64,000 nucleotides of DNA, from sequence record PP400787; one strand, given 5' to 3'. The stretch is from Escherichia phage FL23. The notes under the pieces were generated by a model. It was given only the letters and a program-made list of their open reading frames with translations, ran no database searches and was not told where the DNA came from. How positions within the stretch are numbered: position 1 is the first letter of the stretch; each line of letters opens with the position of its first letter. Below are positions 12,312 through 52,014 of this stretch, in pieces. The position numbers were made by a program, and so were the translations under genes.

Positions 12312-12785
12312 ATGTTATTGACTGGCAAATTATATAAAGAAGAAAAACAAAAATTTTATAATGCACAAAACGGTAAATGCTTAATTTGCCAACGAGAACT
12401 AAATCCTGATGTTCAAGCTAATCATCTTGATCATGACCATGAATTAAATGGACCAAAAGCAGGAAAGGTACGTGGATTGCTTTGTAATCTTTGCAATGCT
12501 GCAGAAGGTCAAATGAAGCACAAATTTAATCGTTCTGGCTTAAAGGGACAAGGTGTTGATTATCTTGAATGGTTAGAAAATTTACTTACTTACTTAAAAT
12601 CCGATTACACCCAAAATAATATTCACCCTAACTTTGTTGGAGATAAATCAAAGGAATTTTCTCGTTTAGGAAAAGAGGAAATGATGGCTGAGATGCTTCA
12701 AAGAGGATTTGAATATAATGAATCTGACACCAAAACACAGTTAATAGCTTCATTTAAGAAGCAGCTTAGAAAGAGTTTAAAATGA
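12312..12785 (+). CDS. 49: endonuclease VII (Holliday-junction resolvase)
   Basis: 157 aa; Cys-rich CLICQ ... HLDHDHE ... CNLCN zinc site; matches recalled T4 gp49. Confidence 0.85.
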   Translation: MLLTGKLYKEEKQKFYNAQNGKCLICQRELNPDVQANHLDHDHELNGPKAGKVRGLLCNLCNAAEGQMKHKFNRSGLKGQGVDYLEWLENLLTYLKSDYTQNNIHPNFVGDKSKEFSRLGKEEMMAEMLQRGFEYNESDTKTQLIASFKKQLRKSLK

Positions 12786-13319
12786 CAATTGAAAAAGAAA
12801 TTGAAGGATTGATTCATAAAACTAATAAAGACCTTTTAAACGAGAATGCTAATAAAGATTCTCGTGTTTTTCCAACTCAACGGGACCTTATGGCTGGTAT
12901 TGTGTCTAAACACATTGCCAAAAATATGGTCCCGTCTTTTATTATGAAAGCGCATGAAAGCGGAATTATTCATTTCCATGATATTGATTATTCCCCTGCT
13001 CTTCCATTTACTAATTGCTGTTTAGTAGATTTAAAAGGAATGCTTGAAAACGGATTTAAGCTAGGTAATGCACAGATTGAAACTCCTAAATCAATTGGCG
13101 TTGCTACTGCAATTATGGCACAAATTACTGCACAGGTTGCTTCTCACCAATATGGCGGAACTACATTTGCTAATGTCGATAAAGTACTTTCTCCTTATGT
13201 TAAACGCACCTATGCAAAACATATTGAGGATGCAGAAAAATGGCAAATCGCTGATGCGTTGAATTATGCTCAATCTAAAACAGAAAAAGACGTATACGAT
13301 GCATTCCAGGCGTATGAGT
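12782..13319 (+). CDS. nrdD: anaerobic ribonucleoside-triphosphate reductase, exon 1
   Basis: N-terminal NrdD sequence; reading frame ends just after QAYE; exon end placed after a U to satisfy group I rule and a 605-aa product. Confidence 0.75.
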
Positions 13320-13532
13320 TAATTTAATTCAGGCTCATGTAAAACCGGTCTAAACGGGGAACCTCTCTAGTAGACAATCCCGTGCTAAATGTTTTTAGAA
13401 AAACTAAATGCCTAACGACTAACCGTGATGAATGTAGCGGTGTAGAATAGAAGCTAATGCTATTCGAAACGGCCGGCATCGAAAGATGAAGATATAGTCT
13501 AATCTGCATGGCGACATGCAGCAGTCATCTTG

Positions 13533-13540
13533 TATAAATA
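13533..13540 (+). promoter_or_regulatory. T4 late promoter (TATAAATA) inside intron, upstream of the intron endonuclease gene
   Basis: Exact TATAAATA 30 nt upstream of the HEG ATG. Confidence 0.5.
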
Positions 13541-13569
13541 AGATTATCTTATGAATACGAGGTGAAACA

Positions 13570-14340
13570 ATGAAATGGATAAAAAGACGTTGTACTAAAA
13601 TAAAAGATAAAGACGCATTTACATACTTAGTTAAGTTTTCTAATGGCGACATTTATATCGGTTATAAAAAATTTAGAACAATTAAAAACAAGCCCACAAA
13701 CTGGAAAACTTACACAACGTCATCTAAGTATATAAATGAACGCTTAAAAACTGATACACCTACTAAATGGATAATTTTAAAAACATTTGATAGTTATAAA
13801 GATGCATTAAAACATGAAGAAGAGGTCATACGTAAATATTTTTATAGCAAAAAATGTTTAAATAAATCCATAGGCGGTAAAAAGTTTTATAAGCATCCGG
13901 ATACTGAAGAACATATTCAAAAATTAAGAGATGCTCATAAGGGTAAAGTGTTATCCGAATCTCATAAAAACAATATAAAATCTTCTGTAGCTGAATATTA
14001 TGCTAAAAACGGAAGATCTAAGGAACATGTGCAAAATAATATCAATAGTCGAAAAAGTAAAAAACAAATATCGATAAAGCTTAAAAATAAAACTTTTAGA
14101 AGTTTTAAAAAAGCAGCGGAATATTTAAATTGCACTGAAAGTGAAGTCGAAACTCATCCTCTTGTTTTGAGTATTAAGACTACTATTCATAAAGTTCCTG
14201 AATATGTGGTTGTTGACGGTATTAAGTATACGTCTTATATAGAAGCAGCTAAAGCGCTAAATTTTCATCCTAGCACTATAAAAGAACGTTGCATATCTAT
14301 GGACTATCCAAATTTTGTTGTTTCATATAAACGGGCATGA
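13570..14340 (+). CDS. intron-encoded GIY-YIG homing endonuclease (I-TevII-like)
   Basis: 256 aa ORF wholly inside the nrdD intron; YLVKFSNGDIYIGYK GIY-YIG-like module; size close to T4 I-TevII. Confidence 0.65.
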   Translation: MKWIKRRCTKIKDKDAFTYLVKFSNGDIYIGYKKFRTIKNKPTNWKTYTTSSKYINERLKTDTPTKWIILKTFDSYKDALKHEEEVIRKYFYSKKCLNKSIGGKKFYKHPDTEEHIQKLRDAHKGKVLSESHKNNIKSSVAEYYAKNGRSKEHVQNNINSRKSKKQISIKLKNKTFRSFKKAAEYLNCTESEVETHPLVLSIKTTIHKVPEYVVVDGIKYTSYIEAAKALNFHPSTIKERCISMDYPNFVVSYKRA

Positions 14341-14366
14341 ATTTGCGACTCATGCTGAATATAATG

Positions 14367-15646
14367 ATGAAGTAAATACACTTTTCAGCTCTAATGGGCA
14401 GACTCCTTTTGTAACAATTACATTTGGTACAGGAACTGACTGGACTGAACGAATGATTCAGAAAGCAATTCTGAAAAATCGTATTAAAGGTCTTGGTCGT
14501 GATGGGATAACTCCTATTTTCCCTAAGCTTGTTATGTTTGTTGAAGAAGGTGTTAATCTTTATAAAGACGATCCGAACTATGATATTAAGCAGCTTGCTC
14601 TAGAGTGCGCAAGCAAAAGAATGTATCCTGATATTATTTCAGCTAAGAACAATAAAGCTATCACTGGTTCATCTGTTCCTGTTTCTCCAATGGGTTGCCG
14701 TAGTTTCTTGAGCGTATGGAAAGATTCGACTGGTAATGAAATTCTTGATGGACGTAATAATCTTGGTGTTGTAACACTGAATCTTCCTCGTATCGCATTA
14801 GATTCTTATATTGGAACACAGTTCAATGAACAGAAATTTGTTGAATTGTTCAATGAACGAATGGATTTATGTTTTGAAGCTTTGATGTGTAGAATTAGTT
14901 CCTTAAAAGGAGTTAAAGCTACTGTTGCTCCTATTCTTTACCAAGAAGGTGCATTTGGGGTTCGTCTTAAACCTGATGACGATATAATTGAGTTATTTAA
15001 AAACGGTAGAAGTTCAGTGTCTTTAGGATACATTGGTATTCACGAATTGAATATTCTTGTCGGTCGTGATATTGGACGAGAAATTTTAACTAAAATGAAT
15101 GCTCATCTTAAACAGTGGACTGAAAGAACCGGATTTGCTTTTAGTTTATATTCGACTCCTGCTGAAAACCTTTGTTATCGCTTCTGTAAACTCGATACAG
15201 AAAAATATGGAAGCGTAAAAGATGTTACCGATAAAGGCTGGTACACTAACAGTTTCCATGTCTCAGTAGAAGAAAATATTACTCCGTTTGAAAAGATTTC
15301 TCGTGAAGCGCCATATCATTTCATTGCGACAGGTGGTCACATTTCTTATGTTGAACTTCCTGATATGAAAAATAACTTGAAAGGTCTTGAGGCCGTATGG
15401 GATTATGCTGCACAACATTTAGATTATTTTGGTGTTAATATGCCAGTGGATAAATGTTTTACATGCGGAAGTACCCATGAAATGACTCCTACTGAAAACG
15501 GATTTGTTTGTTCTATTTGTGGAGAAACTGATCCTAAAAAGATGAATACAATAAGAAGAACATGTGGCTATCTTGGAACTCCTAGCGTTGTTCCATGGAA
15601 TTTAGGTAAAATGAAAGAAATGGTAAAACGAGTAAAACATGCATAG
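14367..15646 (+). CDS. nrdD: anaerobic ribonucleoside-triphosphate reductase, exon 2
   Basis: Continues NrdD frame (EVNTLFSSNGQTPFVTITFGTG ...); C-terminal CxxC ... CxxC zinc ribbon; exon1+exon2 = 605 aa. Confidence 0.75.
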
Positions 15647-16469
15647 ATATTATATAATTTATAAAATAACAAATATAATTAATTCAAAGGAATATATCGG
15701 TGCGCATAGCACCGATAACATAAATGACGGTTATATGGGGTCAGGAACATTGATTCGTGCCGCTTTATTAAAATATGGTAGAAAAAATTTTAATAAAGAA
15801 ATTTTACATGTTTTTGATAATGAAAAACAAATGTATGATAAAGAAGCTGAACTTGTAACCGAAGAGTATTGTCTAAAAGAAAATACATATAATATTAAAC
15901 CTGGTGGAAAAGGTGGAACTGCTTATGAACAGACACTTGAACATCGCCACAAAAATAGTTTGGCAAATAAAGGTAAAAAGAAAACAGAAAAAACTAAAAT
16001 AGCTATTTCACGCGCTTTAAAGAAATATAAACGTACGCCAGAGCATCAAGCAAATTTAAATAAAGCTGTAAGCATAGCTATGAAGCGAAAAGATGTTAGA
16101 AGTAAATTAGTTGGAGAGCGGTCTGAGAAAGATAAATTATCTATATCAAACGGTGTTAAAAAATATTACAATTCTTTGAGCGAAGAAGAACGCGTTCTTC
16201 TTCGCAAGCGAATTATTGAAGGTAAAAAGAATTCTCCCATGTCATTGGAATCTAGACAAAAGCTTTCAAAAGCTTTAAAAGGACTTCAAGTTGGTTCAAA
16301 AAATCCAATGTATGGAAAAATTTCTCCAACTAGCAAAACCGTTTCAGTTGACGGTATTAAATATGATTCAATTAAAAAGTGCTCAAATGCCATAAAAGTT
16401 TCTAGACATCTTATACTAAAACGCTGTAATTCTACTGATGAAGCTTGGAAAAATTGGATATTATTATGA
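15639..16469 (+). CDS. free-standing GIY-YIG homing endonuclease between nrdD and nrdG
   Basis: YYIIYKITNIINSKEYIGAH ... GYMGSG; repeated K-rich NUMOD-like C-terminal repeats; overlaps nrdD stop and nrdG start. Confidence 0.65.
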   Translation: MHRYYIIYKITNIINSKEYIGAHSTDNINDGYMGSGTLIRAALLKYGRKNFNKEILHVFDNEKQMYDKEAELVTEEYCLKENTYNIKPGGKGGTAYEQTLEHRHKNSLANKGKKKTEKTKIAISRALKKYKRTPEHQANLNKAVSIAMKRKDVRSKLVGERSEKDKLSISNGVKKYYNSLSEEERVLLRKRIIEGKKNSPMSLESRQKLSKALKGLQVGSKNPMYGKISPTSKTVSVDGIKYDSIKKCSNAIKVSRHLILKRCNSTDEAWKNWILL

Positions 16470-16936
16470 ATTATGACAGAATATACCCGTGCTGCTTTGT
16501 GAATGGCCCTGGCTGCAGGACCGTTCTTTTCGTTACAGGTTGTTTGCATAAATGCGAAGGGTGTTATAATAAATCAACATGGAATGCTAGAAATGGTATT
16601 CCATTTACTGGTGAAACACTAGAACAATTAATTGAATGTTTGAATAATGATTATATAGAAGGATTAACTATAACTGGAGGAGACCCTCTTTATCCTGATA
16701 ACAGAGACGTGATTCATTGCATTGTTCAAACAGTAAAAAATCTTTATCCCAATAAAAGCATTTGGTTGTGGACAGGATATAAATTTGAAGATATTAAACA
16801 ACTAGAAATGCTTAAATATGTTGATGTTATTATTGATGGGAAGTATGAGAAAAATCTTCCGACTAAAAAGCTGTGGCGAGGATCAGATAATCAGCGACTT
16901 TGGTCAAATACCGATGGGGTGTGGAAACATGATTAA
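16466..16936 (+). CDS. nrdG: anaerobic RNR activating enzyme (radical SAM)
   Basis: 156 aa from internal ATG; Cys cluster CCFVNGPGC ... GCLHKCEGC. Confidence 0.85.
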   Translation: MNYDRIYPCCFVNGPGCRTVLFVTGCLHKCEGCYNKSTWNARNGIPFTGETLEQLIECLNNDYIEGLTITGGDPLYPDNRDVIHCIVQTVKNLYPNKSIWLWTGYKFEDIKQLEMLKYVDVIIDGKYEKNLPTKKLWRGSDNQRLWSNTDGVWKHD

Positions 16937-17054
16937 ATTGAATTATATTATGGATACTATAAATGATATGATTTTTCATTTTGGTCCAGAATTTTATTCG
17001 CAATATAGTTTAGTGCTTATCAATGCTTGGTTAATCAATTAAAGGTAAATGTAA

Positions 17055-39019: not shown

Positions 39020-40048
39020 ATGTCATCAATACCTTGGATTGATAATGAGTTTGCGTATCGTGCATTAGCTCATTTACCTAAATTCACACAAGTAAATAAT
39101 AGTTCAACTTTTAAATTACGGTTTAGATGCCCTGTTTGTGGAGATTCAAAAACCGACCAGAATAAAGCTCGTGGATGGTATTATGGTGATAATAATGAAG
39201 GAAATATTCATTGTTATAACTGTAACTATCATGCACCAATCGGAATATATTTAAAGGAGTTTGAACCCGATTTATATCGTGAGTATATCTTTGAAATAAG
39301 AAAAGAAAAAGGTAAAAGTCGTCCAGTAGAAAAACCTAAAGAACTTCCTAAACAACCTGAGAAGAAAATAATTAAATCTCTTCCGTCATGCGTTAGATTA
39401 GATAAACTGGCGGAAGACCATCCAATTATAAAATATGTAAAAGCTCGCTGTATTCCAAAGGATAAATGGAAATATCTTTGGTTTACAACCGAATGGCCTA
39501 AATTAGTTAATAGCATAGCACCGGGAACATATAAAAAGGAAATACCTGAGCCTCGTCTTGTTATTCCAATTTATAATGCTAATGGAAAAGCTGAGTCTTT
39601 TCAAGGACGTGCATTAAAGAAAGATGCTCCTCAAAAATATATCACCATCAAAGCTTATCCTGAGGCAACAAAAATTTATGGAGTTGAACGAGTCAAAGAT
39701 GGTGATGTATATGTTCTAGAAGGACCTATAGATTCACTTTTTATTGAAAATGGTATAGCTATTACGGGTGGTCAATTAGACCTAGAAGTTGTTCCATTTA
39801 AAGATAGGCGTGTGTGGGTTTTAGATAATGAACCTCGTCATCCTGACACTATTAAGCGAATGACTAAATTAGTTGATGCAGGAGAAAGGGTTATGTTTTG
39901 GGATAAATCTCCCTGGAAATCAAAAGATGTTAATGATATGATTAGAAAGGAAGGTGCAACCCCTGAACAAATTATGGAATATATGAAAAATAATATTGCC
40001 CAAGGGTTGATGGCTAAAATGCGGCTATCTAAATATGCTAAGATTTAA
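39020..40048 (+). CDS. 61: DNA primase gp61
   Basis: 342 aa; N-terminal zinc ribbon CPVCGDS ... CYNCNYH; Toprim region; T4 gp61. Confidence 0.9.
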   Translation: MSSIPWIDNEFAYRALAHLPKFTQVNNSSTFKLRFRCPVCGDSKTDQNKARGWYYGDNNEGNIHCYNCNYHAPIGIYLKEFEPDLYREYIFEIRKEKGKSRPVEKPKELPKQPEKKIIKSLPSCVRLDKLAEDHPIIKYVKARCIPKDKWKYLWFTTEWPKLVNSIAPGTYKKEIPEPRLVIPIYNANGKAESFQGRALKKDAPQKYITIKAYPEATKIYGVERVKDGDVYVLEGPIDSLFIENGIAITGGQLDLEVVPFKDRRVWVLDNEPRHPDTIKRMTKLVDAGERVMFWDKSPWKSKDVNDMIRKEGATPEQIMEYMKNNIAQGLMAKMRLSKYAKI

Positions 40049-40245
40049 ATTAACCCAACCAAAGCAAATGCTAAATCTACGAATGTATCAAGAGTAATTA
40101 CTGGAATATTAACACCATGAGCAATAGCAATTGGTGATAAAACAAAATTCCAGAGTAAAATTCCTACCATAGCAGAAATAGTAAAAGCTATACGTTTCTT
40201 ATTACCTTTTATGGCATTAACAAGTGCCATTAATTTTTGTACCAT
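40045..40245 (-). CDS. small membrane protein, antisense orientation (66 aa)
   Basis: Only minus-strand ORF lying in an intergenic gap; GGAGGA 4 nt before ATG on minus strand; two hydrophobic segments. Confidence 0.4.
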   Translation of the reverse strand: MVQKLMALVNAIKGNKKRIAFTISAMVGILLWNFVLSPIAIAHGVNIPVITLDTFVDLAFALVGLI

Positions 40246-40316
40246 ATGTCCTCCTTATTGCTTTATATATTTATTGTATAATTAATCTACTAACCCATGA
40301 ATTGAAAGGAAAAATA

Positions 40317-40832
40317 ATGGCTTACTTTAATGAATGTTCACAACTGATTGAAGGCGCTGATAAAGCTCAAAATGAATACTGGGATATTCTCGGTGATGAA
40401 AAAGACCCGCTGCAGGTTATGCTTGATATGCAGAAATCTTTACAGGTTCGTTTAGCAAATGACCGCGAATACTGTTATCATCCAGATAAATTAGAAACTG
40501 CCGGTGATGTTGTTTCTTGGATGCGTGAACAAAAAGACTGTATTGATGATGAATTCCGCGAACTTCTGACTTCTCTTGGTGAAATGTCACGTGGTGAAAA
40601 AGATGCATCGGCAGTTTGGAAAAAATGGAAAGCACGTTATATTGAAGCGCAAGAAAAACGCATTGATGAAATGTCCCCAGAAGATCAGCTCGAAATTAAA
40701 TTTGAGCTTGTGGATATATTTCATTTCGTATTAAATATGTTTGCTGGCCTTGGAATGAATGCGGAAGAAATCTTTAAACTTTATTATTTGAAAAATAAAC
40801 ATAATTTTGAACGTCAAGATAATGGGTATTAA
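40317..40832 (+). CDS. 56: dCTP pyrophosphatase gp56
   Basis: 171 aa from MAYFNECSQLIEGADKAQNEYWDILGDEKDPLQVMLD; matches recalled T4 gp56. Confidence 0.9.
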   Translation: MAYFNECSQLIEGADKAQNEYWDILGDEKDPLQVMLDMQKSLQVRLANDREYCYHPDKLETAGDVVSWMREQKDCIDDEFRELLTSLGEMSRGEKDASAVWKKWKARYIEAQEKRIDEMSPEDQLEIKFELVDIFHFVLNMFAGLGMNAEEIFKLYYLKNKHNFERQDNGY

Positions 40833-41496
40833 ACAAAAATTTTATAGAACATATATCGTAAAAGTTAGGACGCCGAAAGGCGTCTTTTGGTACGCTGGGA
40901 AACATGAATCATTTATTGTAAATCCATATGATGATAAATATCCGGGGTCAGGCAAAATACTATGGAACATATATCGTAAGTATGGTTTTAATTATAAAAT
41001 ACGTTGGTCAAAATGCCATGGTTCTAGAGAAAAATCATATGAAGTTGAACGCGAGCTAATATCTGCATTAAAACGTAAACACCCAGATACTTGCATTAAT
41101 ATTTCTCCTGGTGGTCAGGGTGGAGAAGGAAGAAAATGGACTGAGCAACAACGATTAGAACATAAACTTAGATTAAACAATCCTGAAACAAAAACTCGGA
41201 TGAAGAATTCACAACGTATAGCCCAAAATAGAGCAGAACGAAAAGCTCGGCAATCTGAAGTAATGAAAAAGTTTTATTCGAATGGCGGAAATAAAAAGAT
41301 TTCAGAAGGAACTTCAAGGGCGCAAAGAAAAGCGCCGCATTGGAATGAACCGCTTAAAAGCGAAATACATGAGTTATGGGTTTCTTTAGGTAAACCAGCA
41401 ACAGGCCCGGTTGTAAAGGCGCTTAAAGGAAAATATGATGTAACAAGTTCAGCTCTTAAGAATTTAATTTACTTATTCAGAAAAGAAGATGTATAA
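40822..41496 (+). CDS. segF: GIY-YIG homing endonuclease, SegF-like
   Basis: 224 aa from internal ATG; YRTYIVKVRTPKGVFWYAGKH ... YPGSG; immediately downstream of gene 56 as T4 segF. Confidence 0.65.
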   Translation: MGIKQKFYRTYIVKVRTPKGVFWYAGKHESFIVNPYDDKYPGSGKILWNIYRKYGFNYKIRWSKCHGSREKSYEVERELISALKRKHPDTCINISPGGQGGEGRKWTEQQRLEHKLRLNNPETKTRMKNSQRIAQNRAERKARQSEVMKKFYSNGGNKKISEGTSRAQRKAPHWNEPLKSEIHELWVSLGKPATGPVVKALKGKYDVTSSALKNLIYLFRKEDV

Positions 41497-41529
41497 ATAA
41501 TCATGTAATTTAAATAAAAGGAGAATTAC

Positions 41530-51642: not shown

Positions 51643-52014
51643 ATGTTTAAAATCGGTAAGAAGTATCGTATTCGCGAAGGCGAAGAAAAGAAATATCTAT
51701 TTTCTGCTATTTATAGGAATGGTTCTATTAGTAATGTAATATCTACAAGCGAATTTATCGTTGAAGATATGAAGGGTAATAATGTTACAATGATTAGTAC
51801 AGCATCTGGAAATGATGGAAAAATTCTTCACAGTTTTCAGAGTAATGTTCTAATTTATGATGAAGAGTTTGACCTATTTGAAGAAGTTACAGAAGATTTT
51901 GATTTTGGATGCACCATCACTATGAAATCTGGTGACCCTCTTTCTTTTACAGTTAAAGATGAAAGAAGTCGCTTGAGAATTATTAGTCTCCTTCAAGCCA
52001 TTAAATTTGAGTGA
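51643..52014 (+). CDS. hypothetical protein (123 aa)
   Basis: ORF track. Confidence 0.4.
   Translation: MFKIGKKYRIREGEEKKYLFSAIYRNGSISNVISTSEFIVEDMKGNNVTMISTASGNDGKILHSFQSNVLIYDEEFDLFEEVTEDFDFGCTITMKSGDPLSFTVKDERSRLRIISLLQAIKFE

Follow-up and report, generated by a model that had tools for sequence, protein, structure and literature searches.

A predicted group I intron with an I-TevII-like endonuclease gene, and a neighbouring segH, in the nrdD–nrdG region of Escherichia phage FL23

The nrdD–nrdG locus

The stretch of DNA analysed here (the window) comprises 64,000 nucleotides (nt) from Escherichia phage FL23 (sequence record PP400787), in which the ribonucleotide reductase gene nrdD is interrupted by a predicted group I intron with an endonuclease gene of its own and is separated from nrdG by a second homing endonuclease gene, segH. 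All features lie on the plus strand unless stated otherwise, and the local gene order is pin, gene 49, nrdD exon 1, the intron with its open reading frame (ORF), nrdD exon 2, an ORF of 276 amino acids (aa), nrdG and nrdH. The nrdD frame opens at 12782, reads past the end of exon 1 (13319) into the intron and stops at 13327. As given in the list of ORFs, exon 1 (12782–13319) contributes codons 1–179 and the first base of codon 180, while exon 2 (14367–15646) includes the glycyl-radical motif RRTCGYLG (Pfam Gly_radical, E 6.9e-25). When joined, the two exons amount to 1818 nt and encode a 605-aa NrdD with the junction ...DAFQAYE-Y-EVNTLF..., for which an end-to-end match to Pfam NRDD (E 1.3e-171) was obtained in addition to the glycyl-radical domain.

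Positions 12700–16950 match Escherichia phage FL44 (PP400790.1, Tequatrovirus), after which the intron lineage is named below, at 100% identity and a dozen further T4-like phages at 96–98%.

The nrdD intron and its endonuclease gene

The interruption spans 1047 nt (13320–14366), with G14366 as its last base (omega G). The intronless nrdD of T6 (GenBank AY262137) is continuous across both boundaries, reading ...GCTTATGAAT|ATGAAGTAAAT... with the joint exactly at 13319|14367, and the nrdD intron of T4 (1033 nt) is inserted at the same site. An earlier note on this DNA, made by a model from the letters and the ORF list, had placed the break of the NrdD frame after QAYE (~13319) and its restart at ~14367, positions that proved exact, and had suspected a group I intron in the gap; the covariance search and folding now place an RF00028 core and helices P1–P9 there, whereas the lack of any core was what the note had named as a refutation. 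Helix P1 (13313–13339), read from the sequence and recovered as helix 1 of the consensus fold, is predicted to pair exon bases UAUGAGU (13313–13319) with the internal guide GCUCAUG (13333–13339), a guide sequence identical to that of the T4 intron, which puts the wobble U13319.G13333 at the 5' splice site.

The predicted ribozyme core (13320–13525) has the composition P1-P3-P4-P5-P6-P6a-P7-P7.1-P7.2-P8-P9 and is of IA type. In a 1.3-kb scan of 13200–14500, Rfam RF00028 matched 13284–13521 over the whole model (71.4 bits, E 7.7e-18; gathering score, 50 bits). P7.1 and P7.2 together make up the IA-type arrangement, which the T4 introns share. Covariation was assessed in an alignment of five cores, from FL44, JB75, T4, the terminase-gene intron of an Aeromonas phage and the nrdD intron of Salmonella phage UAB_1, the consensus fold of which contained P1, P3, P4, P5, P6, P6a, P7.1, P7.2, P8 and P9; the P7 pseudoknot, which is invariant across the five cores, was added to the fold before pairs were counted. 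Standard pairs occupied 97.4% of the cells (56 pairs in 11 helices) compared to 32–41% in slid controls, in which the pairing partners were moved by 1–3 columns, and changes on both sides were present in 24 of the 56 pairs compared to 2–5 in the same controls. None of 500 shuffles equalled any of the measures of pairing or covariation.

At its 3' end, the intron is predicted to fold into a terminal hairpin (14334–14356; stem GGCAUGA/UCAUGCU) that has GCGA in its loop and holds the stop codon of the intron ORF. The T4 stem, GUAGAG/CUCUAC, is a fully compensatory replacement of the one in the window with the GCGA loop kept, and the same loop is carried on yet other stems by the 3' hairpins of the JEP1 and UAB_1 introns. 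The stems of these hairpins fall out of register in a MAFFT alignment of four introns, and the hairpins are reported here from direct reading and folds. By sequence criteria, the nrdD interruption is supported as a group I intron of the T4 nrdD/sunY type. The T4 nrdD intron has been described as self-splicing (PMC2988022), T4 nrdD is annotated as a joined coding sequence (CDS), and the mobility of its intron is published. For the locus in the window, the sequence shows the anatomy, the homology, the covariation of the structure and the occurrence of both empty sites in relatives, and from there we infer splicing, cleavage and homing.

The intron ORF (13570–14340; 256 aa) is, judged by homology, a full-length GIY-YIG homologue of the T4 homing endonuclease I-TevII, with 56% aa identity over the full length (256 vs 258 aa) and with the TY..YIG, EE and N residues invariant between the two proteins. 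Residues 9–106, in the N-terminal catalytic part, match SegE_GIY-YIG (27.8 bits; cut-off, 25), a match to NUMOD1 as a C-terminal DNA-binding module was also recovered (25 bits; cut-off, 22.8), as was phrog_314, and a search of NCBIfam with the ORF returned no match. The ~1.05-kb gap with a 256-aa GIY-YIG ORF that the earlier note described is this 1047-nt intron and its ORF. The claim that the endonuclease is internal to the intron holds insofar as the ORF lies within the intron, but it is not inside the catalytic core: as in T4 sunY, the core up to P9 comes first, then the ORF and then the conserved 3'-terminal hairpin.

An exact T4-type late promoter, TATAAATA (13533–13540), also correctly reported in the earlier note, lies 30 nt upstream of the ATG of the intron ORF. 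This motif is depleted in the window (3 copies vs 10.7 ± 3.0 expected; about 3.5-fold vs shuffles), so a chance occurrence at this place before the ATG is unlikely. The sole other exact copies in the window are at 41492–41499 (plus strand) and 51708–51715 (minus strand). The promoter falls in the 5' arm and loop of a predicted hairpin (13525–13565; minimum free energy, −19.1 kcal/mol; z, −4.9) whose 11-bp outer stem (13525–13535 with 13555–13565) corresponds to one of 8 bp in T4 and would lock the ribosome-binding site (RBS) of the endonuclease gene, GAGG (13559–13562), in the stem. RNA that begins just after the late promoter, without the 5' arm, has a predicted fold of only −3.7 kcal/mol. 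A late promoter within such a hairpin, and the regulation that goes with it, have been described for I-TevII (PMC2988022).

Overlapping the RBS is a sequence that resembles the homing site, CTTATGAATACGAGGT (13548–13563), in which 14 of 16 bases agree with the site in the intronless nrdD of T6, CTTATGAAT|ATGAAGT. This 16-mer is a putative autorepressor operator, and operators of this kind have been proposed for I-TevII (PMC2988022), though the assignment rests mostly on position and the statistics are weak: it is the sole 16-mer match with 2 mismatches in the 64 kb, for which 0.13 were expected, and the chance of such a match across the whole window is 12 in 100. A 20-mer homing-site probe, allowing up to 3 mismatches, had no match across the window.

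The deposited GenBank record of FL44 gives nrdD as two unjoined CDS for the large subunit and no intron, the second CDS (14453–15646) opening 86 nt inside exon 2, and both endonuclease genes are unnamed in it. On the minus strand (13324–13509), the same record has a 'hypothetical protein' of 61 aa, which was rejected as a gene as it lies wholly inside the conserved ribozyme core. The split nrdD CDS and the 61-aa ORF look like annotation artefacts, and the main value of the finding is correct annotation of the nrdD locus.

segH and its flanks

The second endonuclease gene (15639–16469; 276 aa) shares 8 nt with nrdD at the stop and, at its other end, 4 nt with nrdG at the ATG (16466). The nrdG gene itself, which encodes the activase, extends over 16466–16936 with matches to Pfam Fer4_12 and Radical_SAM. 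The DNA of the second gene is 99.1% identical to the T6 entry and 98.5% identical to the LZ2 entry named 'segH' in GenBank (AY262137 and AY262139, respectively), 272 of the 276 aa are those of T6 SegH, which is likewise 276 aa long, and the overlaps with nrdD and nrdG in the T6 entry are the same as in the window. By this identity, the gene is SegH itself, a free-standing GIY-YIG homing endonuclease gene, in the slot of T4 mobC. The protein also matches NUMOD3 above the cut-off and phrog_314 (8e-59), and its IYKITN...YIG...YNI motifs align with I-TevI in a pairwise comparison; a sequence search of PDB with SegH returned no match. Its likeness to the intron endonuclease is marginal (E 4e-4), and because only this single C-terminal stretch of 33 aa is common to both, SegH and the intron enzyme are different genes, as the earlier note held when it reported a second, distinct endonuclease gene spanning the nrdD stop and the nrdG start. 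SegH reportedly cleaves site-specifically close to its own locus, in work of 2005 by Sandegren, Nord and Sjoberg. The title of their paper (NAR 33:6203) states that segH replaces mobC. The insertion site of mobC in T4 is between nrdG and nrdD (PMC2988022, Table 1), in agreement with the HNH-family mobC that the earlier note placed in this slot.

A segH that is 98.4% identical to that of the window is labelled 'segD' at record positions 39720–40537 in RB3 (KM606994.1 / NC_025419.1) and RB9 (KM606998.1), which appears to be a misnaming.

Comparison of the junctions in related phages, which had been suggested as a way of finding uninterrupted sites, yielded one for each element, the intronless nrdD of T6 and the empty nrdD–nrdG site of JB75. 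The latter phage has an FL44-type intron and nothing between the two genes, the nrdD stop and nrdG start overlapping as CAATGA. Identity between the window and JB75 is 97–100% in nrdD exon 1 and 95–100% over the greater part of exon 2 and nrdG. Over the final ~95 nt of nrdD (15550–15646), it falls to 63–77% at the nt level, and the same range holds against T4, which has mobC where the JB75 site is empty. As JB75 and T4 agree with each other at 97–98% in this stretch, it is the segH allele that has diverged, and the segH carriers T6 and BYEP01 have the nrdD 3' end as in FL44. In the protein, the recoded end changes the NrdD tail from NPNERGFNLGKNKEIMHRVKHQ to TPSVVPWNLGKMKEMVKRVKHA (the last 22 residues) without a change in length. 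At the start of nrdG, a cluster of 11 mismatches to the empty-site allele occurs at 16477–16521, within the first ~56 nt of the gene. A weaker signature is present beside the intron, where exon 2 begins with 60 nt at 85% identity to T4 compared to 97–100% further on.

Divergence beside the elements is limited to the segH flanks and the beginning of exon 2, as co-conversion or target immunity would be expected to leave it. A SegH target would lie in or near these flanks in phages that lack segH, and the recoded flanks would protect the carrier; alternatively, the recoded flanks may have arrived with the segH cassette from a more distant donor. With regard to cleavage by the intron enzyme near the insertion site, the divergence at the beginning of exon 2 is only circumstantial.

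A different patch of divergence occurs in T4, where a central block of nrdG next to mobC (equivalent to window 16556–16736) has 45–68% identity to both FL44 and JB75 and may be linked to mobC; the nrdD end that adjoins mobC is 97–98% identical to the empty-site allele.

Occurrence in relatives, interpretation and known systems

The FL44-type intron ORF was present in 45 phage records (identity of at least 99% in 44 of 45) and the T4-type I-TevII in 25 (at least 99% in all), while segH, over at least 80% of its length, was present in 70 (identity of at least 90%) and mobC in 32 (at least 99% in all). The combinations seen include the intron only (JB75), segH only (T6), the T4-type intron with segH (fPS-2) and the FL44-type intron with segH, the last in 13 distinct phages (FL44 and 12 more). 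Because all combinations occur, the intron and segH would seem to move independently, with their pairing nonetheless common.

Several relatives carry variations on the locus. In fPS-2, a third homing-endonuclease gene (~820 nt; locus positions 283–1104) is located between gene 49 (endonuclease VII; 12312–12785 in the window) and nrdD, making three within 5 kb, and Lv5cm and F26, with an extra ~810 nt, may carry a comparable gene. The FL44-type intron of BYEP01 has a 702-nt deletion (locus positions 1169–1260) that removes nearly the whole endonuclease ORF and leaves the ribozyme core and the 3' hairpin intact (Rfam, 72 bits). Related nrdD group I introns occur in Vequintavirus and Justusliebigvirus phages, namely JEP1 (locus positions 330–1170) and UAB_1 (locus positions 340–680), with a core that is 69–82% identical, a common GAACAUAAUG 3' tail and the terminal hairpin with the GCGA loop; one of them has an HNH ORF in the P6 loop and the other is without an ORF. 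That these introns share the homing site of the window intron was considered and rejected, as they are inserted elsewhere (..SMG|CRSF..).

Overall, the T4-like nrdD–nrdG operon of the window appears to be occupied by two independent homing elements, a self-splicing IA-type intron with an I-TevII-like gene and segH (probability about 0.93), much as the earlier note had pictured two selfish elements stacked at one locus. By homology with T4, the pre-mRNA would fold P1 around U13319.G13333, an exogenous G would attack the 5' splice site, omega G14366 would set the 3' splice site, and exon ligation would give an mRNA for the intact 605-aa NrdD. In early read-through transcripts, the RBS of the endonuclease gene would be buried in the 11-bp hairpin; late transcripts would start inside the hairpin and would be translatable, because the late promoter lies within the hairpin and the 5' arm is then absent. 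The intron enzyme would cut the intronless nrdD of co-infecting phages, and repair from the intron-bearing copy would transfer the intron together with nearby exon sequence. Lacking a promoter of its own and overlapping both neighbours, segH probably depends on the operon mRNA and on coupled translation; its product would cut alleles without segH near the nrdD/nrdG junction, repair would copy segH in, and the segH-bearing allele would be protected by the recoding at the end of its nrdD and the start of its nrdG.

Some observations weigh against this interpretation. The scan of the whole 64-kb window with Rfam at the gathering threshold gave zero matches and so missed the intron, as a multi-locus Rfam scan likewise missed that of JB75. 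Since an intron that scores 71.4 bits in a short scan was missed, a large Rfam scan without a match is not evidence of absence. Further structured RNAs in the window (1–64000) could have escaped the whole-window scan in the same way. SegH scores below the cut-off of the GIY-YIG models (Pfam SegE_GIY-YIG, 18.6 vs 25; TIGR01453, 46.9 vs 56), and for this reason its assignment rests on identity to the T6 protein and on the visible motifs. The intron endonuclease, in turn, has an identity of only 56% to the characterised I-TevII.

It is possible, though in our view unlikely, that the elements cooperate instead of moving independently: they are 1.3 kb apart, and a break made by SegH could co-convert the intron, or the reverse, so that the pair spreads as a module in the manner of mobE and I-TevIII. 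Trans-homing of the defunct I-TevIII intron driven by mobE has been published (PMC2790892), and 13 of the ~35 phages with the FL44-type intron carry segH compared to ~70 of ~570 closely related records, a roughly threefold excess that is uncorrected for shared ancestry and may reflect nothing else. All four combinations of intron and segH exist, however, and exon 2, which separates the elements, is 97–100% identical to that of phages without one or the other, with no obligatory joint tract visible.

A still less probable view holds that the intron splices but that one or both endonucleases are inactive or immobile, like T4 I-TevIII, and persist as fossils since precise loss is rare. The copies are nearly identical (at least 99%) and therefore offer little sign of purifying selection on the ORFs; BYEP01 demonstrates that the intron ORF can be deleted with the core kept, and the gene in the segH slot of fPS-2 is annotated at 735 nt vs 831 nt in the window. 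Set against this, both ORFs of the window are of full length relative to their characterised homologues (256 vs 258 and 276 vs 276 aa), the expression signals are intact, and the elements are patchily distributed among genomes otherwise 96–98% identical while each lineage is at least 99% identical, suggesting recent horizontal spread.

That NrdD is made as two assembling polypeptides without splicing, with the insert being an endonuclease cassette only, as where mobE splits nrdA of Aeh1, is very improbable: the paired CDS of the FL44 record would agree with it and intron-free split ribonucleotide reductase genes that work are documented (PMC3045599), but a full group I core that shows covariation separates the nrdD halves, joining at the boundaries gives back the T6 reading frame exactly, the junction offers exon 2 no start codon, conserved residues would be lost if translation began at the annotated second CDS, 86 nt in, and the homologous T4 intron is annotated within a joined CDS and described as self-splicing (PMC2988022).

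With two independent homing elements as the favoured interpretation, the locus is one more case of T4-like ribonucleotide reductase genes as hotspots for stacked homing elements. It also provides natural material on competition and cooperation among such elements, as two intron lineages use one site, segH, mobC or nothing fills one slot, and a third endonuclease occurs in relatives. No new question is opened by the finding.

Among known systems, the T4 nrdD (sunY) intron with I-TevII is alike in insertion point, internal guide, IA-type core with P7.1 and P7.2, placement of the ORF 3' of P9 and before a terminal hairpin, an enzyme of like length (258 vs 256 aa) and module order, and a late promoter inside a hairpin that masks the RBS. 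It differs in sequence, with ~66% nt identity across the intron (1033 vs 1047 nt) and 56% aa identity in the endonuclease; the stems of P6a, P7.2, P8 and the 3' hairpin have sequences other than those of T4 with pairing kept, and a 9-nt insertion gives the RBS hairpin of the window an extra inner stem, unlike T4. Among sequenced phages, the intron lineage of the window is the commoner (45 records vs 25 for the T4 type). SegH of the window differs from that of T6, known along with LZ2 SegH, by four aa substitutions, and in the window segH is paired with the nrdD intron whereas T6 is intronless. T4 mobC occupies the same slot between nrdD and nrdG and is likewise a free-standing endonuclease gene that lacks its own promoter, but it belongs to the HNH family, is 633 nt long and does not align with the window, the T4 alignment breaking at 15621 and resuming at 16458. 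The divergence that may go with mobC is a block within nrdG, whereas segH of the window is linked to a recoded nrdD end.

The td intron with I-TevI is similarly of IA type, with a GIY-YIG endonuclease that is controlled through a late promoter, a hairpin and an operator, and I-TevI is similar to SegH at its two ends; td is a different host gene, however, and its intron ORF separates the 5' from the 3' segment of the core instead of following P9. From 13349 to 13390 (P4–P5 and the start of P6), 42 of 42 nt equal the td intron of many T-even phages, compared to only 17 of 19 nt for the T4 nrdD intron over the P4–P6 stretch, an identity that hints at a past exchange of domains between nrdD and td introns. 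A literature search on intron domain shuffling found nothing; the subject is reportedly treated by Bryk and Belfort (1990). A fuller scheme, in which the window intron represents a second, more widespread lineage that took P4–P6 from td by recombination, the two lineages may differ in how they recognise the homing site and compete for it, and SegH may co-mobilise the intron within a single selfish nrdD–nrdG module, is put forward tentatively, with the odds well against it. An nrdD intron with its endonuclease, accompanied by segH, belongs to kinds of selfish elements already well known in T4-like phages, to which the second intron lineage and the 42-nt stretch identical to td add minor points.

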